Sequence record: NC_054894.1
Direction: 5' to 3' (one strand)
Source of the DNA: Escherichia phage Henu7
Length of the DNA: 49,526 nucleotides
Position 1 is the first letter of the stretch. Each line of letters starts with the position of its first letter. The position numbers and the translations under genes were made by a program. Below are positions 37,030-49,147 of the stretch, one piece after another. The notes under the pieces are model-generated. The model was not told the origin of the DNA. It worked only from the letters and a program-made list of their open reading frames with translations, and ran no database searches.

Positions 37030-40000
37030 ATGGCGGAACAATACGCAGGCTTGACGTTAGGCGTTGACGTTCAGCAGGTAAACAACGCAGTTAAATCCCT
37101 GAGGGATTTTAAGACCGCTTCCGAGGGTGCGGCTGATGGTCTTGAGTCTTTCGTCAATGAGGAGCAGATTGCCAGACAGAGAGCCAAAGATTTGGCCTCA
37201 GAGCTTGCAAAGCAGAGAAAGGAATTTCAGAGCGTACAGGCCGCAATAGATCCGACTGCGGCAAAAATGGAGCGACTAAAGGTTGCTGCGGCTGACCTTG
37301 ATAAGCTTTGGAAAAATGGAGTGGTTCCAGACGAGACATTTTTCCAGCTTGGAGAAATGATTGAGGCTCAGACAAACAAGCTTGCAGCAAACAGAAAAGC
37401 GTTAACGGCTGAGGGCATGGCGGCAATCGAGGAGTCAAAGCAGAAAGCTAAAGCGGCGGCTGAGGCTCAGAAATTCATTGCGGCTCTTGAGGCGCAAGCT
37501 GCTGCTGCTGGCAAGACGCAATCCGAACTGATGGAAATGAAAGCGGCTCAACTTGGTGTTACAGCGCAAGCGGCTCCATTCATTGAGAGAATGCGCCAGC
37601 AAGAGCAAGCGACACAGAAACTTGGAATCTCAATGGGTCAGTATAACCAAGCTATGCGAATGCTTCCGGCTCAGATCACTGACGTTGTAACGTCGCTTGC
37701 TTCCGGTATGCCTGTTTGGATGGTTGCAATTCAGCAGGGCGGTCAGATTAAGGACTCTTTCGGCAGCATAGGGAATGCATTTCAGGGGCTGAAAGATTTA
37801 ATCCTTGGTGCGGGCGTAGATATTAATGAATCTCTGGATGAAACCAGCGAAAACGCCAACGATCTTGCTGAGGGTTTTAATAATATAGCCGATGCTGGCG
37901 GTAGGGTTGGCGGTCTCGCTAGGTTCATTAACCCAGTAACCATCGGTGCGGTTGCCCTTGTTGGTGCTATCGCAGCAATTGCAAAAGCTGGTTTCGATGC
38001 GTGGAAGTCACAAAGGGATCTGGCTAATGCTTTGGTAATTACTGGTGGATATGCTGCCACTACCACAGGGCAGATTGACGATCTGGCGAATGAATTGAGC
38101 GAGACTTCAAGCGCAACTTCCGGAAGAATCAAGGATATCGCGTCAACTTTGGCATCCTCTGGGAAATACACTGTTAGCCAGATTAAGACCATTACCAAGA
38201 CTACTGCGGAATGGGAAGCGCAAACAGGAGAGAGCAGCGATAAAATCAAAGGGTACTTTGACATGATTTTAAAAGATCCTGTCAAGGGTCTTGTCGAACT
38301 TAACGATAAATTCAACTTCCTGAATGAAGGGCAGCTAACCTATATTGATACACTGAGCAAAACCAAGGGCGAGGTAGCAGCAGCAGATGAAGCGACAAAA
38401 CTATTTGCTGAAACGATGGATAAGCGACTGAAAGATGTGGCTGACAGCGCAACACCTCTTGAAGATATGTGGATGGATATCAAGAAGTGGGCGTCAGATG
38501 CATGGGATTGGGTTGGGGATCACACGATGGCGGCGCTTAACCTGATCATTGACGTTGTAGCCGGAACGGTTGAGCAGGTTCGTTATTTGCTTAATCAGGG
38601 TGATATTCTCATTGGTGAATTTATTATATCTGCAACAAATGCTATGCAAAAAATACCTGGTCTTGATGGTGTTGGTGACTCAGTAATTGCAAAGCAACAG
38701 AATATTATAAATAACGCTAAGGAGAACAACAAGGAGCTATTAAAATCAATTGCCGAACGTAACGAGCGAGTCAAAAAAGGCGAGCAGGGTTACATTGACA
38801 TGATGAAAAATCGTGCAGCGGTTGAACAGCAATATGCGACAAAAACAAAAGAGAATATCAGGAAGGAAGCCGAGGAATTAGCTAAGCGCAACAAAAAGCA
38901 AAAGGCTGAAAAAGCTAAGGTATCGGCTGGCGATAAGCTGGAAGAACAATATCAGCGTGATATCCTTGCGCTAGAAACTCAATTAAGAGTTTTGAAAGAG
39001 CACAAGACGATCACAGATACAATAAGCCAGCAACGTAAATCTTTATGGGCTGAACAAGCTAAAATTCAGATTTTGCAAGAAGCCTCAACAAAACGGCAAC
39101 TTACTGATGAAGAAAAAAGCATTTTAGCAAACAAAGATAAGATCCTGGCGATGGCTGAACAAAAAGCTATTTTGGGCGATCAGATTGTTGCGCAAACGCG
39201 CCTTAATCAGTTGCAAGATAGCTCAATCAAGTTTATCCAGCAGCAGAAAGCAGCAACGGAAGCACTAGCCAAAACCAGAGGGTTAAGTGAACGTGAAGCA
39301 GCAAGAGCGGAGGAACGTGCAAAGGTTGAGGCTGATTATCTTGCCAAAGGAGGCAAGGAAGGAGATCCGCAACTCACCGCAATGATGGATGAATTAGACA
39401 ATCGCTATAAAGAGGAAGATGCTAAACGTGCTGATTGGTTGGCTGGCGCTAAAAATGCCTTTGCGGAGTACGGCGAGGAAGCAATGAACATGTATGATAA
39501 TATCGGCAACATTGCGAGCCAGGCGCTAAACGGCCTATCGCAACAAATGTCTGATTTTTTGACTACTGGACAAGCCAGCTTCAAAGACTTTGCAAAATCG
39601 ATCATTAGCATGATTGTTCAGATGATCACAAAGATGGTTATCTTCAATAGCATTTCCGGCATGATGGGCGGCTCAACCTGGACAATGGGATCGCTAATGA
39701 GCGGCTTCTCGTCTGGTGGGTACACTGGCGACGGCGGAAAGTATGATCCGGCTGGCATTGTTCACAAAGGCGAGTTTGTTTTCACTAAGGAAGCAACGCA
39801 GCGAATCGGCGCTCGTAACCTTTACCGCCTGATGCGTGGATATGCAAACGGCGGCAGCGTTGGCGGCTCAGGTTACAGCAGGGCTTCAACTGGCGGCGCT
39901 GGACTTGCTTACTCGTTCGGTGATATCAACGTTGATATCAACAACGGGAGCGATCCAAAAGGTCTTGAAACTGGTGTTAGAATGCTTGTTGCTGATATGC

Positions 40001-40059
40001 TCAAGCGTGAAATGGGTCAAGGCGGCAGCATTTATAATTTCGTTATGGAAAGGAGGTAA
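37030..40059 (+). CDS. tail tape measure protein
   Basis: 1009 aa, coiled-coil-rich, Gly-rich C-terminal region; canonical position. Confidence 0.85.
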
Positions 40060-40061
40060 TT

Positions 40062-40415
40062 TTGGCTAACCTGGAGATGTTTAAATGGTGTACCCAAACG
40101 CAGGGAGGCGGAGGGAGCATGACGACTGAGGACACCGTGAGGGAGGTTGTTTTTGGGAATGGATACACGCAAGTTGCGTCGTCTGGTTTAAACATGACGA
40201 AGCGCAGCTTTAGTGTTATCTACGCTGGTGCTGATTACATGGATGTGATCAGCTTCATGCAAAGGCATCTTGTTAAACCTTTCGCGTGGATTGCGCCTGA
40301 TGGAAAGGCTGGATTGTTCAGGGTTAAATCTGGAACTATCGCAGCCAAGCCAATCTCCCCAACCGCTCAGGAGGTAGCGGCGACTTTCGTTGAGCAATTT
40401 ACCAGCATGGAATAA
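40062..40415 (+). CDS. minor tail protein (lambda M-like)
   Basis: 117 aa immediately after the tape measure. Confidence 0.55.
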   Translation: MANLEMFKWCTQTQGGGGSMTTEDTVREVVFGNGYTQVASSGLNMTKRSFSVIYAGADYMDVISFMQRHLVKPFAWIAPDGKAGLFRVKSGTIAAKPISPTAQEVAATFVEQFTSME

Positions 40416-40418
40416 TCA

Positions 40419-40443
40419 AAGCCGCCTTTGTGCGGCTTTTTTA
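40419..40443 (+). terminator. intrinsic terminator
   Basis: Hairpin AGCCGCCTTTGTGCGGCT followed by TTTTTT. Confidence 0.7.
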
Positions 40444-40485
40444 TTGGTGCTACAATATGCAATTATCACAAAAGGAGGTCTATCA

Positions 40486-41238
40486 ATGGCTACAGGTAAA
40501 GAAGAATTTGAGAACTGCTTACAGAGCCTTTACCCTGGCGAGATCATGACACTGGTAGAGGTTGACGGTACAAAGTTTGGCGCTGGCGTTTACCGATTCC
40601 ATAATGAGAATGTGCAATACACGCCGGAGGAGATCATGAAAGCGGTTGAGAGCGGCACGCTACCGCCAAAGGAGATTATCTTCCAGGGTGAGGCATACGG
40701 AGCGCGTCCTTTCGGAATTACTGGTATCAGCTTTACAAGTGACGGCAAAGCCGGAAAGCCGGAACTAACACTGTCAAACATTGACAGCCAGGTATCGGCA
40801 TTGATTCGTGCTTACAACGGCATGATGCAAGCAAAGGTCACAATATGGGTCACGTCAAAAGAAATGATTCAGAGTGACGGCAGCGTAAAAGACGGCGCTT
40901 ATCGCAAGCTTGTCTACTACGTCGAGCGCCCTAGCTACTGCAATAAGAGCATAGCCAGATTCGAGCTAACCTCTCCATATGATATGGATGGAATAATGAT
41001 CCCGCCACGAATCACTCAAAGCGTTTGCTATTGGGCGCAACGTGGATGGTATCGAAGCGGAAAGGGTTGCAGCTACAACGGATCGCGAATGTTCGACAAG
41101 GACAATAACCCTGTAACAGATCCGAGCCTTGACCAATGCGCGGGAACAGTAACGGCCTGTAAGTTGCGTTTTGGCGCGGATCAAGAGTTAGATTTTGGCG
41201 GCTGCGCAGTCGCATCACTTTTAAGGAGCTACCAATGA
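40486..41238 (+). CDS. minor tail protein (lambda L-like)
   Basis: RBS AAGGAGG before ATG 40486; C-terminal Cys cluster (possible Fe-S site as in lambda L). Confidence 0.6.
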   Translation: MATGKEEFENCLQSLYPGEIMTLVEVDGTKFGAGVYRFHNENVQYTPEEIMKAVESGTLPPKEIIFQGEAYGARPFGITGISFTSDGKAGKPELTLSNIDSQVSALIRAYNGMMQAKVTIWVTSKEMIQSDGSVKDGAYRKLVYYVERPSYCNKSIARFELTSPYDMDGIMIPPRITQSVCYWAQRGWYRSGKGCSYNGSRMFDKDNNPVTDPSLDQCAGTVTACKLRFGADQELDFGGCAVASLLRSYQ

Positions 41239-41951
41239 TTAGCGCAAAAATTAAACTGGAAATAATGCGCCACGCGCAGGACGTATACCCCGCTGAGTGT
41301 TGCGGGGTTGTAACCCAAAAGTCACGCGTCCAGCGATATCACCGAATCAATAACGTGCATGATGATCCAGAAAATCATTTCTTGATGGATGCAGACGAGT
41401 ACGCAGAGATTGAGGGAGGGGATCATGAGATTATCGCAATCGTTCACAGTCACACCGGAGACGGCGCAACAACGCTACCGAGCGCACACGATACTTGCAT
41501 GTGTGACGAAATGGGCGTGACTTGGGTTATCGTATCGCTTCCAGAGGGTGATATGAGAATGATTGAACCTGCAACGCGTCCTCTGATTGGTCGCCCGTGG
41601 TCGCTAGGATCGTATGATTGCTGGGGCTTGATTATGGCGTGGCACAAAGAGCAGGGCGTGATCCTTAATGACTTCCGCAAGCCTTACGAGTGGTGGAAGC
41701 CTGAATATGGCGAAAATCTATATCAGGAGAACTATCTGAAAGAGGGTTTCATTCCAACAGGTAAGGAGCCGGAGCCTGGCGATATGATCATAATGCAGCT
41801 TCAAGCGCCAGTATGGAACCATGCCGGAATCTACTTAGGCAATAATCAAATCCTGCATCATGCTTTTGGCAAGCTGTCAAGATCTGATATCTATTCTGGA
41901 TGGTATCAGGAGCACACGGTAATGATTTGCAGACATAAGGAGCTAAAGTAA
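41235..41951 (+). CDS. tail assembly protein (lambda K-like; JAB/MPN plus NlpC/P60)
   Basis: JAMM-like motif HSHTGDGATTLPSAHD; Cys/His pair DCWGL...HAGIY of NlpC/P60 type. Confidence 0.7.
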   Translation: MISAKIKLEIMRHAQDVYPAECCGVVTQKSRVQRYHRINNVHDDPENHFLMDADEYAEIEGGDHEIIAIVHSHTGDGATTLPSAHDTCMCDEMGVTWVIVSLPEGDMRMIEPATRPLIGRPWSLGSYDCWGLIMAWHKEQGVILNDFRKPYEWWKPEYGENLYQENYLKEGFIPTGKEPEPGDMIIMQLQAPVWNHAGIYLGNNQILHHAFGKLSRSDIYSGWYQEHTVMICRHKELK

Positions 41952-42550
41952 TGCAGACACTAAAGAGAATTAAGCTTTCCGGCTCGCTGGGGCGGCGTTT
42001 CGGCGTTTTTCATGAATTAGCCGTTGAATCATACCCCGAAGCGATTCGTGCTCTCTCTGTGGCGCTGGATGGCTTTAAAGACTATATGCAAAGTGAAGTT
42101 GGTTCGCGTATGCACTACGCCGTTTTTGTTGACGGGAAAAATGTAGGGCAGTATGACGAAAAGGCGTGGAAGTGCGGAAAGGAAATTCGAATCATCCCGA
42201 TCCCGTCCGGCTCAAAATCTGGCGGATTGTTCCAGGTTGTTTTAGGAGCAGCAATCATGGCTACGGCGTTCTTTACTGGCGGCGCATCACTTGCCGCAAT
42301 GGGCGCTCTATCCTCCTCAGCGTTCATGATGGGTGGCGCTATGGTTTTGGGTGGTGTTATGCAGATGATATCACCACAGCGCGGCGGTATGCAGATGGAA
42401 GTGAAGAGTACGGAAAACAAGCCGTCATATGCGTTCGGCGGCGCTGTAAATACCACGGCGGCTGGTTATCCATTACCCCTTCCATATGGCTATCGAACCG
42501 TTGGAGGAGCCATCTGGAGTTCAGGAAGCTATGCAGAGGACAAAGTATAA
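41951..42550 (+). CDS. tail assembly protein (lambda I-like)
   Basis: Position between K-like and J-like genes; Gly/Ala-rich hydrophobic C-terminal half. Confidence 0.55.
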   Translation: MQTLKRIKLSGSLGRRFGVFHELAVESYPEAIRALSVALDGFKDYMQSEVGSRMHYAVFVDGKNVGQYDEKAWKCGKEIRIIPIPSGSKSGGLFQVVLGAAIMATAFFTGGASLAAMGALSSSAFMMGGAMVLGGVMQMISPQRGGMQMEVKSTENKPSYAFGGAVNTTAAGYPLPLPYGYRTVGGAIWSSGSYAEDKV

Positions 42551-42554
42551 AACA

Positions 42555-42579
42555 AACCCCGCATTGCGGGGTTTTTTAT
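42555..42579 (+). terminator. intrinsic terminator
   Basis: Hairpin CCCCGCATTGCGGGG followed by TTTTTT. Confidence 0.75.
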
Positions 42580-42603
42580 TGGTTGCTATAATGCAACCTC
42601 AAA

Positions 42604-42622
42604 ACAGCACAAATTGTTAAAA
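42604..42622 (+). promoter_or_regulatory. degenerate palindromic element upstream of J-like gene
   Basis: ACAGCACAAATTGTTAAAA, preceded by hairpin GGTTGC-TATAAT-GCAACC at 42581..42598. Confidence 0.35.
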
Positions 42623-42637
42623 CTGGAGGCCAAAACT

Positions 42638-45600
42638 ATGATAAGCGGCAATAAGGGCGGCTCCTCTAAGCCGTATACGCCAAAGGAGATGGAGGATAAC
42701 CTGATCTCCATCAACAAAATCAAGATCCTCCTGGCGGTTTCAGACGGAGAGGTAGACGGCGAGTTTTCGCTAAAAAATCTCTACCTTGACGACGTGCCAG
42801 TGCAAAACGCAGACGGCTCGCTTAACTATAGCGGTGTTAGTGCTGAGTTCCGGCCAGGCACTCAAACGCAGGACTACATCAAGGGATTTTCAGACACGTC
42901 AAGCGAAGTAACAATTCAGCGAGATCTGGCGCAGAATAACCCTTACAGCATTGCGGTAACAAACAAATCACTATCTGCTATCAGGATCAAAATCCTGATG
43001 CCTCAGGGATACAAGCAGGAGGATAACGGCGATCTGGTTGGTGTATCAGTGCAATACGCGGTTGATATGGCTGTAGACGGCGGCTCATTCAAGCGAGTTC
43101 TGACTGATACGATCACTGGCAAGACAAAAAGCGGCTACGACCGCAGCCAGCGAATCGACCTGCCAGCATTCAACGAGCAGGTGATTTTGCGCGTTAGCCG
43201 AATCACGCCGGACTCTAACACAGGACGAGTTGTTGACGCGATCAGATTGCAGAGCTATGCGGAGGTTGTTGATGCAAAATTCCGTTACCCTCTGACTGGT
43301 CTTGTTTATGTTGAGTTTGATAGCGAGCTTTTCCCGACTCAGCTACCGAACATTTCTATCAAGAAGAAATGGAAGCTGATCAAGGTTCCTGTTAACTACG
43401 ATCCAGATTCGCGCACCTATAGCGGATCATGGAATGGTTTATTCAAGACTGCGTGGAGCAATAACCCTGCCTGGGTTCTGTATGACCTGATCACCAATCA
43501 GCGCTACGGACTCGACCAAAGGGAGCTTGGGATTGAGATCGACAAGTGGAGCATCTACGAGGCTGCGCAATATTGCGATCAGATGGTTCCAGATGGCAAG
43601 GGAGGTTTAGAGCCTCGCTATCTTTGTGATGTGGTTATCCAGAGCCAGATTGAGGCGTTTAACCTTATCCGCGATATTTGCTCAATCTTCCGTGGTATGA
43701 GCTTTTGGAACGGCGAGAGCCTTTCTATCGTGGTGGATAAGCCGCGCGATCCGTCTTACATTTTCAGCAATGACAACGTGGTAAACGGCGATTTTCAGTA
43801 CACATTTGCTAGCGAGAAAAGCATGTATACGCAGTGCAACGTGACTTTCGACGACGAGCAAAACATGTACAGCCAGGATATTGAGGGCGTTTTCGACACT
43901 GAGGCCGCTTTGCGTTTTGGTCACAATCCGACAAGTATCACAGCAATCGGATGCACACGACGCAGCGAGGCGAACCGACGAGGGCGCTGGATTCTCAAGA
44001 CTAACCTGCGCAGCACTACGGTAAACTTTGCAACAGGTCTTGAGGGTATGATCCCGACAATCGGAGACGTGATCGCAATCGCGGATAACTTCTGGTCAAG
44101 TAACTTGACGCTGAATCTTTCGGGGCGCGTCATGGAGGTTTCAGGGCTGCAAGTTTTCCTCCCGTTCCGAGTTGATGCGCGGCCTGGTGATTTTATCCTG
44201 ATAAACAAGCCGGACGGAAAGCCAGTTAAGCGCACTATCTCACGAGTTAGCGCAGACGGGAAAACTATTGAGTTAAACGTTGGCTTTGGTTTCGACGTTA
44301 AGCCGGACACGGTTTTCGCAATCGACAGGACTGATCTTGCGTTGCAGCAGTACGTTGTTACCGGAATAACAAGGGGCGACGATACGGAGCAATTCACGTA
44401 CTCAATAACGGCGGTCGAATACGATCCAAACAAGTACGACGAGATTGATTACGGAGTGAACATTGACGACAGGCCAACAAGCATTGTAAACCCTGGAGTG
44501 ATGAGAGCGCCTGAAAATGTGCAGGTGTCCTCTTACTCTCGCATTGTTCAGGGGCAGAGCGTAGAAACGATGGTTGTTAGCTGGGATAAAGTCGAATACG
44601 CAAGCTTGTACGATGTGCAATGGAGAAAGGACAATAGCAACTGGCTAAACGTTCCTCAGACTGCAAACAAAGAGGTTAGCGTTGAGGGTATTTACTCAGG
44701 CAACTACTTTGTAAGGGTTCGATCAGTATCCGCTTCTGGAAGCACATCGCCTTGGTCTGGCGTTGTTTCCGCCGCATTAACTGGCAAGGTTGGAGAGCCT
44801 AAAATGCCTATTAACTTGACAGCCTCAGATAATGAGATATTTGGGATCCGCGTCAAGTGGGGTATGCCGGAGGGTGCTGGAGATACTGCTTACATAGAGC
44901 TACAGCAAGCGCCGGACGTAGACGGAATGGCTAGCGAAGAAAACGCAACACTGCTAACTCTCGTTCCGTATCCTCAAATGGAGTATTGGCACGCAACGTT
45001 ACCACCTGGATATATCAACTGGTATCGAGTGCGAAGTGTTGACAGGATCGGAAACGTTTCTGCATGGACTGACTTTGTGCGCGGTATGTCGTCAACTAAC
45101 GTTGATGATGTTTTAGGCGACATTCTTGATGATATTTTAAACTCTGCTGGGTTTGAGGAGTTCAAAGAGAATGCCGTAGATACTGCAAACAAGGTTAAAG
45201 ACCAGGCGCAAAGCGTGATCCAGAATGCGCTAGCTATTGATACTAATCTACGCTGGAACCGAGTAGAAAACGGGAAGCGTAAAGCGGAGCACGGACAGGC
45301 GCTGGAGCTTATCGCTAACGAGACTGAGGCGCGAATTCAGGCGGTTGATGTTCTGCGCACTGAGTTTGACGAGGGTATCTCCTCTAACATTACAGAGGTT
45401 AAAACCCTTATCTCTAACGAGGCGGAGACGCGAGCGAGCCAGGTTCAGCAGCTTGAATCTACGTTCACAACAGAGATCGGAAAGACAAACGCAAACGTGA
45501 GTAGCGCACAGCAAGCGATTGCAAAAGAGACTGAGGCAAGGACTCAAGCGGTTAGCTCTCTTGACTCCAAGTTTACAGGGCAGATCAATGGCGTTAAGCA

Positions 45601-46174
45601 GGATTTATCCTCAAACGTCACGAGGTTGGATCAGTCTATCGCGAGCGAGACTCAAGCGAGATCCAGTGCTGACACTGCGTTGTCAACTCGTGTTGGTAAA
45701 ACTGAATCGGCAATTACTCAGAAGCTTGACTCTTGGGTAGACAACGGATCTATAGGTGCTCAGTACGCTCTCAAGCTTGGGATTAAACGTGCTGGTGTTG
45801 AGTACACGGCTGGAGTTTCGCTATCGCTAATCCAGTCAGGTAGCGAGATAAAATCTCAATTCCTGGTTGATGCGGCGAGGTTCGGGGTAATGACTAGGCA
45901 GGGAGGAAGCTACACATTGCCGTTTGTAGTTGATAATGGAACGGTTATCATGAATACGGCGCTAATTAAAAACGGCTCTATAACCAACGCAATGATTGGT
46001 AACGTGATTCAGTCAAATAATTATGTTGCTGGCAAGTCCGGTTGGAGGCTGGACAAAAACGGAAACCTTGAGATCAATGGCAGCGCCGGAAATGGCAGAC
46101 TGACCATTAACAATAACATTATCGCGGTTTACGATGGTAATGGTGTCTTGAGGGTTCGAATGGGGTTGTTCTAA
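42638..46174 (+). CDS. tail tip / central tail fibre protein (lambda J-like host specificity protein)
   Basis: About 1178 aa after M/L/K/I; RBS GGAGG; C-terminal region with ETEAR-type repeats. Confidence 0.8.
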   Translation: MISGNKGGSSKPYTPKEMEDNLISINKIKILLAVSDGEVDGEFSLKNLYLDDVPVQNADGSLNYSGVSAEFRPGTQTQDYIKGFSDTSSEVTIQRDLAQNNPYSIAVTNKSLSAIRIKILMPQGYKQEDNGDLVGVSVQYAVDMAVDGGSFKRVLTDTITGKTKSGYDRSQRIDLPAFNEQVILRVSRITPDSNTGRVVDAIRLQSYAEVVDAKFRYPLTGLVYVEFDSELFPTQLPNISIKKKWKLIKVPVNYDPDSRTYSGSWNGLFKTAWSNNPAWVLYDLITNQRYGLDQRELGIEIDKWSIYEAAQYCDQMVPDGKGGLEPRYLCDVVIQSQIEAFNLIRDICSIFRGMSFWNGESLSIVVDKPRDPSYIFSNDNVVNGDFQYTFASEKSMYTQCNVTFDDEQNMYSQDIEGVFDTEAALRFGHNPTSITAIGCTRRSEANRRGRWILKTNLRSTTVNFATGLEGMIPTIGDVIAIADNFWSSNLTLNLSGRVMEVSGLQVFLPFRVDARPGDFILINKPDGKPVKRTISRVSADGKTIELNVGFGFDVKPDTVFAIDRTDLALQQYVVTGITRGDDTEQFTYSITAVEYDPNKYDEIDYGVNIDDRPTSIVNPGVMRAPENVQVSSYSRIVQGQSVETMVVSWDKVEYASLYDVQWRKDNSNWLNVPQTANKEVSVEGIYSGNYFVRVRSVSASGSTSPWSGVVSAALTGKVGEPKMPINLTASDNEIFGIRVKWGMPEGAGDTAYIELQQAPDVDGMASEENATLLTLVPYPQMEYWHATLPPGYINWYRVRSVDRIGNVSAWTDFVRGMSSTNVDDVLGDILDDILNSAGFEEFKENAVDTANKVKDQAQSVIQNALAIDTNLRWNRVENGKRKAEHGQALELIANETEARIQAVDVLRTEFDEGISSNITEVKTLISNEAETRASQVQQLESTFTTEIGKTNANVSSAQQAIAKETEARTQAVSSLDSKFTGQINGVKQDLSSNVTRLDQSIASETQARSSADTALSTRVGKTESAITQKLDSWVDNGSIGAQYALKLGIKRAGVEYTAGVSLSLIQSGSEIKSQFLVDAARFGVMTRQGGSYTLPFVVDNGTVIMNTALIKNGSITNAMIGNVIQSNNYVAGKSGWRLDKNGNLEINGSAGNGRLTINNNIIAVYDGNGVLRVRMGLF

Positions 46175-46179
46175 CAGAA

Positions 46180-46209
46180 AAGGGAGCCTTGCGGCTCCCT
46201 CTTTTTTTA
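46180..46209. terminator. intrinsic terminator between convergent J-like gene and leftward gene
   Basis: Hairpin GGGAGCCTTGCGGCTCCC followed by TCTTTTTTT. Confidence 0.7.
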
Positions 46210-46539
46210 CATCAATTTGTTGTGGTCAACAGGGATTCTGTTTGTTTGCTTGGTGATCATATCAAGCTTGTATTCATCGCCGCGCTTCCACTCGAATCGA
46301 AGGGTATACGTGTTAGCGTCACCGTAGCACATTACGTGCTTGAATTTTCGCAAGTGCTTATCAAAGATCGCGTTTGTGCTCTCCTCAATCTTCAACGTCC
46401 GATCTGAGCAGTTTACAACGGCGACGGTTGAGCCAGTAAGAGACATTCTGGAAGCTTCAACCGGATAGCCGATATTAACGTTCAAAGCCATAGCGTTTAA
46501 GGGAGCTACAAGAGCCATAGCGAGCATGATTTTTTTCAT
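46207..46539 (-). CDS. secreted/periplasmic small protein (candidate superinfection-exclusion or receptor-masking factor)
   Basis: Start ATG 46539 (MKKIMLAMALVAPLNAMA...) with signal peptide; own regulatory unit upstream on minus strand. Confidence 0.55.
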   Translation of the reverse strand: MKKIMLAMALVAPLNAMALNVNIGYPVEASRMSLTGSTVAVVNCSDRTLKIEESTNAIFDKHLRKFKHVMCYGDANTYTLRFEWKRGDEYKLDMITKQTNRIPVDHNKLM

Positions 46540-46596
46540 TTGCATTTCCTCGTTTCGTTAAGTTGAAATGAGTATAGCCCCATTTGCGTGGCTTGT

Positions 46597-46614
46597 TTTA
46601 GCAATTTGTGCGGT
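46597..46614 (-). promoter_or_regulatory. palindromic element plus TATACT
   Basis: Minus strand reads CCGCACAAATTGCTAAAA, then TATACT and leader AACGAAACGAGGA. Confidence 0.4.
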
Positions 46615-47267
46615 TAGTTGTAACCCTGGAATTTTGCGTATGGTATTTTGAGGTTTCCGCGCCCGTTAAATATTTCAGAGAAAGATCGCTGGTTTCTTCT
46701 GATCCAGTATGTCTGCAACTGCGAACCAGTCCAGCGCATGAGGTTTCCTGAATAACCCTGCGTTTCTCCGTCGTCGCTCCATTCGCCGTAGCAGGCATCC
46801 CAGAGAAAGAATGGGTTAAAACCTGGAGTCACTGAGGCAACGTTAGCCTCAAGGTTGAATGAAGCCGGAACGTCAAGGAATCCCATTATTCGAGGCATTG
46901 TTGCGGCGCTAGCGGCAGTCCAAACAAGATTACCGGAAGCGTCGAATACGTCGAGATAGCCTGACGTAAGCGCCTTGTTTCTCGAAGTCCTGATTATCCT
47001 GATTGCGTTAGTGCTGAACATATCCGCGCCAGGGTAGCCCCACTGGTTATTACCTGTAAACTGAATCCAGGTTAGAAAGCCATCCTTGCGCTTATCACCA
47101 TCGCGAAGATTGCCAAGGGCTTTAACGTTGCCAAATGGCGTGCTTAGGCTGTAAGCCCCAACGTCAATTAGCGGTTGCGGAGTGTAGATAGAATCAAAGA
47201 TCGTATGCTTTTGATCTGAGTTGATCAGGACAACACCCGCGTTATTACGTACCTCAAAGCCTGACAT
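46614..47267 (-). CDS. hypothetical protein, paralog of next gene (possible tail-fibre-associated)
   Basis: Shares DASGNLV motif with 47276..47581. Confidence 0.45.
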   Translation of the reverse strand: MSGFEVRNNAGVVLINSDQKHTIFDSIYTPQPLIDVGAYSLSTPFGNVKALGNLRDGDKRKDGFLTWIQFTGNNQWGYPGADMFSTNAIRIIRTSRNKALTSGYLDVFDASGNLVWTAASAATMPRIMGFLDVPASFNLEANVASVTPGFNPFFLWDACYGEWSDDGETQGYSGNLMRWTGSQLQTYWIRRNQRSFSEIFNGRGNLKIPYAKFQGYN

Positions 47268-47275
47268 AAAGCCTC

Positions 47276-47581
47276 CTAGTTAAACATGTAAACTTCAATG
47301 GTAAGAGTCTGATCAACAAGCGGATTGCTTGTTGGCAGGTAAAGAACATCAACGCCGCCGTTTCTCGTCACGGCTGCATAGCTTGGTTTATACACAGCGC
47401 CAGCAGATGCCGCCATGACAACCGCGAACGAGTTGGAACCAGTCAGCCCAGCTACGTTGAAAGAAACCGCGCGAGTAGTTCGCGGGAATGAAATGTTTTG
47501 CCGGACAACAAAGCGCGTACTGAAATCGCCAAGATCGACAACCAGGTTTCCGCTTGCATCCCAGGCTTGAAGACCAGGCAT
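47276..47581 (-). CDS. hypothetical protein (DASGNLV motif)
   Basis: Motif WDASGNLVVD; first gene of a leftward unit transcribed out of the AT-rich control region. Confidence 0.45.
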   Translation of the reverse strand: MPGLQAWDASGNLVVDLGDFSTRFVVRQNISFPRTTRAVSFNVAGLTGSNSFAVVMAASAGAVYKPSYAAVTRNGGVDVLYLPTSNPLVDQTLTIEVYMFN

Positions 47582-47769
47582 AATGCCACCTCTCTAGTTT
47601 GCTTATTAAGTGCATTTAATATACAGGCGCGGCGTAATCATTTCAATGGCAAATGCAAAACCTTACCTTGATTGTTCTTTTTGTTTCTCGATGTTCTCTA
47701 TTGCGCCCACCGCAGAATCGCACAACGTTTCAGAACAGAAAAAACAAAATAAATCATCTATAATATATA

Positions 47770-47815
47770 ATAAAATCAATAGTTTAGTTTATATGTATTT
47801 GTATATTGTTATTTA
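47770..47815. repeat. AT-rich conserved element, copy 2
   Basis: ATAAAATCAATAGTTTA identical to 17254..17270, followed by a similar TTTATATGTATTTGTATATTGTT tract. Confidence 0.7.
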
Positions 47816-48030
47816 TTGTTTCCAGTGTTTCAGTGTTAATTGATGTACTGGCTTTCTTTAGTCTTGATATCTCTATTATCCATTTGATGTGTGTATTTAT
47901 ATAAACCCCACCGCAAATCCGTGAACAATGAAACAAAAAATAACGACGTTTAAAATCATTCACTTAAGAGCTGATTTTGTTATCGAGGTTGAAAGATGTG
48001 TTTCGAGAACAGAAAAAACAATTGAAGGTA

Positions 48031-48058
48031 TTGACTAAACGCCACAAATGGCTACAAT
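48031..48058 (+). promoter_or_regulatory. candidate sigma70 promoter for recombination operon
   Basis: TTGACT, 16-nt spacer, TACAAT, about 30 nt upstream of RBS CAGGAG and ATG 48089. Confidence 0.5.
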
Positions 48059-48088
48059 GCACGTATACCAACACACAGGAGCGAAAGA

Positions 48089-49147
48089 ATGAGTGAGTTT
48101 AAAGTTTTCACTAGCGCAGAAATGCCGAACGAGGTTTATCACGATCCGAATAGCTGGACGGCTGAGTACACAAGCGGATCGAATCTGGCTGAGGTTTTCC
48201 AGTCCTCCCCCGCATCCTGGAAATTTAAGGAGCGAGACGAAAACGCAAAGCCGCTAATTTTCGGCACTCAGTCGCATACAAACTTTGAGAGCAAGGCACT
48301 GTTTGAGGCTCAATATCGCAGAGCGCCAGCGCCGGAGGACTTCAAAGATCTTATTACCAGCCAAACGGCTCTCGCTGCGAAATTGAAATCTTTCGGCCTG
48401 AAAGGTACAAGCGGGAAGCAGTATCCAGATCTGATTAAGATGATGGTTGATTGTGGTGAGGATTTGCAGGTTCAATGGCTGATTGAAATGATCGCAGAAT
48501 CCGAAGCGCGTGCGGCTGGGGTTGAGCTTGTAAACGCAAAAGATTATGACGCTTGCGTAGCCATGCGCCAGGTTCTTGAGTCGATACCAGAGCACAATGC
48601 GTGCATGAATAGCCCAACAGCACAGCGCGAGCTTTCGATTTTCGGTGTTATCAATGGCGTTAAGGTTAAAGTACGACTTGATCACATTGACGAATGCGAA
48701 AACGTAGAGTTTACGCTAATCACTGGATATGACGACAAAGGACAGCCGATTTGCGAGGACGTTATTTATCCTGAGGCTATTGTGATCACGGACTATAAAA
48801 CCACAATGAGCGCCAATCCTCTTGAATTTGAGCGCCTGGCATTCAATCACGGCTACTATTTAAAAATGGCCTTGCAGCATGATTTATTCCGCAAGGCTTA
48901 CCCGAACGAAACGCGCCCCGTAGTGGTTCGACTTCTGGCGCAGGAGAAGAAAAAGCCTTACTTGCCGCTGGCGTACCGAATGAACAGCGAGCAACTCAAG
49001 ATCGGGCGCATTCAGTACATGAGCGTAATCAATCAGTTTGCAATGTGCCAGGCGCATAACATCTGGCCTTCATACGCAAACGGAGCGCCGGAGGTTTCGC
49101 TTACTACTCCTGATTGGGTTCGCCGCCAATACAAAGAATTTCTGTAA
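48089..49147 (+). CDS. PD-(D/E)xK family exonuclease (recombination exonuclease partner of ERF)
   Basis: Motif ITDYKT followed by YY..Q, typical of RecB/Cas4-like nuclease motif III; located upstream of ERF and SSB. Confidence 0.55.
   Translation: MSEFKVFTSAEMPNEVYHDPNSWTAEYTSGSNLAEVFQSSPASWKFKERDENAKPLIFGTQSHTNFESKALFEAQYRRAPAPEDFKDLITSQTALAAKLKSFGLKGTSGKQYPDLIKMMVDCGEDLQVQWLIEMIAESEARAAGVELVNAKDYDACVAMRQVLESIPEHNACMNSPTAQRELSIFGVINGVKVKVRLDHIDECENVEFTLITGYDDKGQPICEDVIYPEAIVITDYKTTMSANPLEFERLAFNHGYYLKMALQHDLFRKAYPNETRPVVVRLLAQEKKKPYLPLAYRMNSEQLKIGRIQYMSVINQFAMCQAHNIWPSYANGAPEVSLTTPDWVRRQYKEFL

Follow-up and report, generated by a model that had tools for sequence, protein, structure and literature searches.

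What do the two small genes encode that lie beside the J-like tail tip gene of Escherichia phage Henu7 and are read towards it, and does a heptapeptide shared by their products point at a common origin? The DNA in question is a stretch of 49,526 nt (NC_054894.1), here termed the window, and all coordinates are those of the whole stretch. A first-pass annotation had singled out this pair of open reading frames (ORFs) for a common DASGNLV motif and had proposed duplication and divergence, leftward transcription out of an AT-rich region and a tail-fibre-associated or host-range accessory role. Both ORFs were found exactly where it had placed them, on the minus strand, and they adjoin the tail tip gene with a third minus-strand ORF, SIP-1, situated between J and RBP-1:

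47276..47581, minus strand: RBP-2 ORF, 101 aa, begins MPGLQAWDASGNLVVDLGDF; corresponds to bas10_0026 / QXV80561 of phage IsaakIselin
46614..47267, minus strand: RBP-1 ORF, 217 aa, contains YLDVFDASGNLVWTAASAA; corresponds to bas10_0025 / QXV80560
42614..46174, plus strand: J-like tail tip gene, convergent with the three minus-strand ORFs

The first half of the question can be answered from a close relative. Across positions 46100-48100 the window shares 97.7% DNA identity with Escherichia phage IsaakIselin (Bas10; Drexlerviridae, Tempevirinae), and at the protein level RBP-1 is 98.6% identical to QXV80560 and RBP-2 95% identical to QXV80561. The genes bas10_0026, 0025 and 0024 are all annotated as encoding a hypothetical protein in IsaakIselin. 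The dependence of this phage on YncD has been shown by Maffei et al. (2021), and the receptor specificity of small siphoviruses has been assigned to "bona fide RBP loci" (RBP, receptor-binding protein) beside gpJ (PMC8594841). A 2025 Sci Adv study of YncD, now PqqU, named QXV80560 RBP-1, QXV80561 RBP-2 and QXV80559 SIP-1. In that study an RBP-1/RBP-2 dimer was predicted by AlphaFold2-multimer on the extracellular face of open PqqU, and SIP-1, a protein resembling TonB's C-terminal domain, was predicted on the periplasmic side as a putative superinfection-exclusion factor acting on PqqU (PMC12124388). The pair is thus the published two-protein receptor binder of a T1-like coliphage for the TonB-dependent transporter YncD/PqqU, with the receptor known from genetics and the binding from structure prediction. 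RBP-1 is predicted to be the main receptor-binding subunit for YncD/PqqU, while RBP-2 is likely an adaptor and co-receptor-binding subunit and the counterpart of gp55 from the Pseudomonas podovirus DEV. As regards the role first proposed, the connection with the tail fibre and with host range is upheld by a receptor-binding locus beside gpJ that is near-identical to that of IsaakIselin; the two proteins appear to be the receptor binders themselves and not accessories.

Genes and role have therefore already been described for a near-identical phage, and the finding is ordinary in kind. What is added here, from weak sequence statistics and monomer models, is a repeated conserved hairpin, a probable ancient paralogy between the C-terminal half of RBP-1 and RBP-2, a J end found together with the pair, and a kinship with the receptor-binding fibre of DEV. 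The available parts of PMC8594841 and PMC12124388 do not mention the repeated hairpin, the resemblance of RBP-2 to the RBP-1 C-half or the link to DEV. General databases contribute little: scans of Pfam, in a copy apparently lacking the PF28254 model, and of NCBIfam returned no match for RBP-1 or RBP-2, while a precomputed match to Pfam PF28254.1 exists on every RBP-1 relative (P0018-P0192). PHROGs offers "unknown function" families only for both proteins, and a PDB sequence search gave no match for the RBP-1 profile and only insignificant matches to antibody heavy-chain variable (VH) domains for that of RBP-2.

The second half of the question starts from the motif, which is indeed present in both proteins. 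DASGNLV occupies aa 8-14 of RBP-2 (nt 47540-47560) and aa 109-115 of RBP-1 (nt 46923-46943), and six of its seven codons differ synonymously between the two genes, which argues for conservation at the peptide level and not for a recent DNA duplication or gene conversion. In the AlphaFold2 models of RBP-2 and RBP-1 it forms the turn of a beta-hairpin, and three blocks in the two proteins follow the common pattern h-x-h-aromatic-D/N-x-x-G-x-h-x-h:

47531..47575, minus strand: RBP-2 hairpin, aa 3-17, GLQAWDASGNLVVDL; strands 5-7 and 13-16 in the AlphaFold2 model
47217..47261, minus strand: RBP-1 N-terminal hairpin, aa 3-17, GFEVRNNAGVVLINS; in-register alignment with the N-terminus of RBP-2
46914..46958, minus strand: RBP-1 internal hairpin, aa 104-118, YLDVFDASGNLVWTA; strands 106-108 and 114-117; opens the RBP-2-like C-half

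These blocks stand out by conservation. Among 17 close and 52 distant relatives of RBP-2 the signature GLQcWDasGxLvvDlgDy is kept while the remainder drops to 25-40% identity, and G3, Q5, W7, G11, D16 and D19 are near-invariant in the 52 relatives down to 25% identity. The most conserved blocks in RBP-1 relatives are MSGFEVxNxxG at the N-terminus and the internal SGYLDVFDxxGxLxWSAxSAxxMPR, with G3, F4, E5 and N8 invariant in the former hairpin and G103, D106, V107, F108, G112 and A118 in the latter. In three lineages the hairpin positions are residues 3-4 of the small protein and residues 3-4 and 104-115 of the large one. The N-terminal hairpins have low pLDDT values in the monomer models (51-61 in RBP-1, ~74 in RBP-2), as is expected of segments that require a partner. 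A strict version of the pattern, written after these sequences had been seen, matched three times (J end, RBP-1 and RBP-2) in 48,714 aa of six-frame ORFs, with 0.25 matches expected. A short hidden Markov model of the hairpin, run against all ORFs of the window, had the RBP-1 internal motif as its best non-self match at a non-significant E of 0.15 and did not retrieve the J end.

Could the heptapeptide be a mere coincidence between adjacent unrelated genes? We regard this as highly improbable. It is true that BLASTP of RBP-2 against RBP-1 yields an E of only 0.036 for a single comparison and that the window offers many ORF pairs to choose from; however, when the small protein was shuffled 20,000 times, an exact common 7-mer appeared just once, the motif belongs to the best-conserved block of either family, and the same arrangement is encountered in the Acinetobacter phage Presley and in DEV, the sequences of which are otherwise highly diverged.

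Whether the likeness extends beyond the turn depends on the method. The BLASTP alignment comprises a single segment of 11 residues, eight of them identical, and nothing significant appears outside the motif, an outcome that the first-pass annotation had named as speaking against a duplication. Profile comparisons by hhalign, for which deeper alignments of 69 and 123 sequences were used, go further. RBP-2 matched the N-half of RBP-1, N-terminus on N-terminus, with E 1.8e-5 (probability 78%, score 31.1), and aa 3-86 of RBP-2 matched aa 104-193 of RBP-1, the register of the first-pass annotation, with E 1.2e-3 (probability 19.5%, score 23.0). Neither the reversed control nor any of 60 controls with shuffled columns (maxima 16.0 and 19.1) reaches these scores. 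One run in global mode aligned 11 columns only; it was taken as a parsing or algorithm artefact and was not used. Upon permissive realignment, aa 2-100 of RBP-2 became collinear end to end with aa 102-213 of RBP-1, and along this alignment the secondary structures assigned by DSSP in the two AlphaFold models, which were predicted independently, coincide at 67 of 93 positions (72%), compared with never more than 56 under 107 circular shifts. The agreement of RBP-2 with the N-half of RBP-1 was not above circular shifts. The RBP-2 model consists of an N-terminal hairpin followed by a lectin-like beta-sandwich, and the predicted models match lectin domains in fold (H-type or galactose-binding lectin-like sandwich).

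On this basis RBP-2 and the C-half of RBP-1 (aa 102-217) probably go back to a single hairpin-plus-sandwich module from which they have diverged, a conclusion with modest support, and the N-terminus of RBP-1 probably carries an extra copy of the hairpin. Duplication and divergence, as first proposed, hence find no backing in pairwise alignment and are sustained only in part, by a weak but reproducible collinear profile similarity and by the secondary structure. Any duplication is ancient, since the same three-hairpin layout is found in podoviruses of Acinetobacter and Pseudomonas. RBP-1 was also considered as a clean tandem of two full modules; this is not claimed here, as its N-half and C-half match each other only weakly (hhalign E 0.011, probability 3.9%) and the secondary structure of the N-half does not rise above the shifts.

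The same data can be read without common ancestry: the hairpins would then be convergent or constrained docking peptides that fit one partner surface, either the end of the J trimer or each other, in proteins that are otherwise unrelated. We consider this unlikely, although high alignment confidence is indeed confined to the first ~25 residues, BLAST detects nothing in the remainder of the pair, and J, which is no paralogue of the sandwich domains, also ends in a hairpin of this kind. A docking peptide alone does not sit well with collinearity over the whole of RBP-2 and a secondary-structure agreement above all circular shifts, nor with the fact that the models of both proteins match the same solved RBP and that the invariant R23 and P33 of RBP-2 fall on the invariant R126 and P134 of RBP-1.

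If the hairpins serve docking, the place to look for their partner is the end of the fibre:

45992..46174, plus strand: C-terminal 60 aa of J, GWRLDKNGNLEING...GRLTINNN...IIAVYDGNGVLRV, ending ...IIAVYDGNGVLRVRMGLF; proposed docking end

This end contains a hairpin of the common pattern (IIAVYDGNGVLRV). Residues 3-19 of RBP-2 align with it in hhalign at E 0.002, marginally above shuffles, and aa 38-116 of RBP-1 (46920-47156, minus strand; GFLTWIQFTGNNQWGYPG...IRIIRTSRN...YLDVFDASGNLVW) align with the last 60 residues of J at E 6e-4, with a score of 26.6 compared to a maximum of 18.5 in 100 shuffles. There are thus hints in the sequences that part of RBP-1 may derive from, or mimic, the terminal repeat of the fibre.

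The J end also accompanies the pair across genomes. We evaluated 79 viral loci with an RBP-1 relative. An RBP-2-like ORF lies immediately upstream of that relative in 78 of them, and an ORF ending in ...YDxNN[VR]LRVRMGL[WF] is present in 76 of the 79 loci holding the pair. This end was found in none of 80 LptD-type loci, which end in ...GGGRVVVGRW. A 2026 preprint, according to which the C-terminal tip of GpJ tracks the type of RBP, agrees with these counts. Three loci (L102, L119 and L150) with an RBP-1 relative have, within 3 kb, no ORF that ends in ...LRVRMGLW, and in L150 a recognizable RBP-2-like ORF is missing as well; possibly they are exceptions to the cassette rule, or else truncated or rearranged contigs.

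Comparison with related phages had been suggested as a check, and it reveals that the locus of IsaakIselin is the same and that the pair recurs across siphoviruses and podoviruses. In other Drexlerviridae the pair is inverted relative to J, while in the lambdoid phage HK639 and in many prophage-like contigs it shares the direction of J, with an overlap between the start and stop codons of the pair and of J. Cronobacter phage ENT39118 possesses the pair with the small gene left unannotated. In the Acinetobacter N4-like podovirus Presley the pair follows directly and co-directionally after the gene for the large tail protein Presley_60 (>2,100 aa), which has a J-type end, ...LITVYDDNNVLRVRMGLW. 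The end of DEV gp56 aligns with the J end and is a more diverged form of it. A doubled arrangement is seen in the viral contig IMGVR_UViG_2791355284_000001 (92,470 bp; L136 and L141), where 37107-43742 and 48729-55364 each hold a module of J end, RBP-2 and RBP-1, the two being oppositely oriented. Two prophages may account for this, or an inverted duplication, or an artefact of assembly.

From coliphages to the podoviruses of Acinetobacter and Pseudomonas, the hairpins and the J end ...VYDGNGVLRVRMGLF are the only blocks that are kept, and for this reason we infer that they form the assembly interface. Judged by conservation, the most likely task of the hairpins is to hold the heterodimer on the J trimer. 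J would be a trimeric central fibre, the C-terminal end of which would be capped by one RBP-2 and one RBP-1, and this 1:1 heterodimer would bind the extracellular face of open YncD/PqqU; after infection, SIP-1 would block PqqU from the periplasm. Each hairpin-headed beta-sandwich module would comprise ~100 aa, with RBP-2 consisting of one module and the C-half of RBP-1 representing a diverged second copy. The three hairpins of the two chains would meet the three chain ends of J, such that a trimer would carry an asymmetric head, and the variable loops of the sandwiches would carry receptor specificity and diverge with the receptor. Taken as a whole, this is the explanation that we prefer and consider fairly probable: a 1:1 heterodimer on the J end that binds PqqU, with anciently duplicated hairpin modules and the hairpins as assembly interface.

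A number of observations weigh against it. The pairwise alignment of RBP-2 and RBP-1 is not significant, as stated above, and the hhalign probabilities (78% and 19.5%) are modest. When 1.84 billion representatives were searched with the RBP-2 profile, the 53 matches were nearly all ~100 aa in length with a few shorter fragments, and no member of the RBP-1 family was among the matches at E <= 0.001. Structure prediction, which the first-pass annotation had suggested as a check, cuts both ways: beside the matching secondary structures of RBP-2 and the RBP-1 C-half stands a Foldseek search of the BFVD viral structures with the RBP-2 model, which returned small phage proteins and fibre tips and no clear RBP-1-like match. 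Comparison of gp54, the larger of the two DEV proteins, with RBP-1 is not significant (hhalign E 0.032, probability 1.6%). With most of the loci being closely related and HK639-like, the cases behind the co-occurrence counts are not independent. Finally, hairpin contacts and a pseudo-threefold match are deduced from conservation, and the place of RBP-1 and RBP-2 in the virion of this phage is a predicted one.

A more far-reaching version is conceivable, which we put forward tentatively and with more doubt than trust. The heterodimer may be a pseudo-trimer that presents one hairpin three times, two being supplied by RBP-1 and the third by RBP-2. On the J trimer they would prolong its three C-terminal hairpins, and threefold symmetry would thereby pass into one asymmetric receptor-binding head. 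A hairpin-plus-sandwich unit, in part similar to the last 60 residues of J, would have been duplicated to give the module, and a cassette of J end, small gene and large gene would move between siphoviruses and N4-like podoviruses and be retargeted, to PqqU or LptD.

The pair decides which outer-membrane protein is used by this phage family and thus matters for host-range prediction and engineering. If the preferred explanation is true, an assembly interface, to be kept when receptor binders are swapped, is separable from the variable parts that contact the receptor, and a coliphage locus known only from predictions becomes linked to DEV, a system with genetic data. Of possible practical use are the conserved repeated hairpin, the likeness of RBP-2 to the C-half of RBP-1, the partner-specific J end and the kinship with DEV.

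How the genes are expressed is suggested by the surroundings of the pair, which comprise the following features:

46207..46545, minus strand: SIP-1 ORF, 112 aa, N-terminal signal peptide MQMKKIMLAMALVAPLNAMA; corresponds to QXV80559 / bas10_0024; PHROG 25729
48089-49147, plus strand: RecE-like exonuclease VIII gene; PHROG 412, E 5e-96; Pfam DUF3799
47618..47646, minus strand: sigma-70-like promoter candidate TTGAAA-17-TATATT, a consensus match 37 nt upstream of the RBP-2 start codon
48031-48058: divergent promoter-like site for the recE-like gene, a consensus match in the common AT-rich region
46181-46200: GC-rich stem-loop with an 8 bp stem, AGGGAGCCTTGCGGCTCCCT followed by a T-run, between the stop codons of J (46174) and SIP-1 (46207)

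RBP-2 and the recE-like gene diverge from one AT-rich stretch, with a GC content of only 28-32% at 47600-48000 upstream of RBP-2. Leftward transcription out of this region, as originally claimed, is consistent with the low GC content and the minus-strand sigma-70-like site; the number of promoter-like sites in the AT-rich region is not above that in shuffled sequence. The RBP-2 stop codon is separated from the RBP-1 ORF by 8 nt, and a Shine-Dalgarno sequence precedes each of the three minus-strand ORFs, those of the RBP-2/RBP-1 pair (GAGGTGG and AGGAGG) being good ones. SIP-1, the ORF of which has no Pfam or NCBIfam match, is the last gene of a leftward unit RBP-2, RBP-1, SIP-1, and the stem-loop is, by its sequence, probably a bidirectional terminator shared by J and SIP-1.

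How does the locus compare with systems that are already known? IsaakIselin has the same genes in the same order and in the same position between the J-like and recE-like genes and there is no substantive difference, apart from a start of SIP-1 that is annotated two codons further in than that of the window ORF. The single-chain LptD-type RBPs of the Oekolampad and Rtp44 type have the lectin-like beta-sandwich fold in common with the pair, and that of Oekolampad is encoded in the same slot beside gpJ. Related LptD-type RBPs are described as two lectin-like sandwiches (PMC13035648), and the tail-proximal part of the Oekolampad RBP is disordered (PMC12685063). Membership of our pair in this family was considered and rejected: hhalign of the Oekolampad LptD-RBP family against RBP-1 and RBP-2 was not significant in any combination (E 0.04-0.17), and the RBP-1 profile found no sequence match in the PDB. 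With no detectable relation in sequence, the LptD-type RBPs share fold class and genomic position but not family membership. Further differences lie in the Oekolampad/Rtp44 RBP being one chain of 321 aa (PDB 9RPT; PMC12685063) compared with two chains totalling 318 aa here, in the ...GGGRVVVGRW end of J and in a superinfection-exclusion protein that is a small lipoprotein. The Oekolampad RBP (L007 8655-9620, minus strand) begins with a hairpin-like GILIDYNDGRPRMEI and contains an internal FARWDDGNVSVGFDG, a likeness that is not significant (hhalign E 0.17). An analogous system is that of T5 pb5 and Llp, with a monomeric or asymmetric binder on a trimeric central fibre, a TonB-dependent transporter as target and a cognate periplasmic exclusion protein.

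Closest to the arrangement proposed here is the receptor-binding fibre of DEV. According to PMC12892993, a J-like short fibre of 429 aa and two proteins of 99 and 223 aa are the products of the gp56-gp55-gp54 operon. Each of the three is essential, and gp54 was identified as the LptD-binding protein by suppressor mutations. Modelling by AlphaFold3, with a fit to an 8.5 A map, gave a 3:1:1 composition in which the gp56 trimer bears a single gp55 and a single gp54 at its C-terminal end, and gp55 was proposed as an adaptor (PMC12892993). The sections consulted note the similarity of gp56 to Drexlerviridae J and connect neither gp55 nor gp54 with the PqqU-type pair. Compared with gp55, the RBP-2 profile reaches an HH probability of 91.5% (E 8e-7; BLASTP E 3e-5), and by this sequence evidence RBP-2 is homologous to gp55. 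Protein gp55 begins with MSYGFRFYDANGNVTVD, while gp54 has YGIKLTNENSDICID at the N-terminus and GMQVFDADGNGVFD at aa 115; BLASTP of gp54 against RBP-1 retrieves a 12-aa hairpin only (E 0.15), and within DEV the small and the large protein resemble each other at the hairpins.

DEV also bears on the idea that RBP-2 is a non-virion assembly chaperone for RBP-1, with the hairpin as a transient recognition element, which we hold to be improbable. Small genes adjoining fibre genes often encode assembly chaperones. In PMC12892993, moreover, the identification of gp55 in DEV virions by mass spectrometry is uncertain; in the same paper, however, gp55 orthologues are reported as structural proteins in the related phage LIT1, and a thermosensitive phenotype on an LptD loop-9 mutant maps beside gp55 in the DEV model. 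AlphaFold models place both RBP-2 and gp55 in a receptor-facing complex (PMC12124388 and PMC12892993), and a lectin-like sandwich such as that of RBP-2 is typical of receptor-binding tips. The two systems are alike in having a J-like gene accompanied by a gene for ~100 aa (101 aa here, 99 aa in DEV) and one for ~220 aa (217 and 223 aa, respectively), and the two hairpins of gp54 lie at positions matching those in RBP-1. The systems differ in that DEV is a podovirus with LptD as receptor, whereas PqqU is the receptor here, and in that the DEV genes are co-directional and overlapping, whereas the pair in Henu7 is inverted relative to J.

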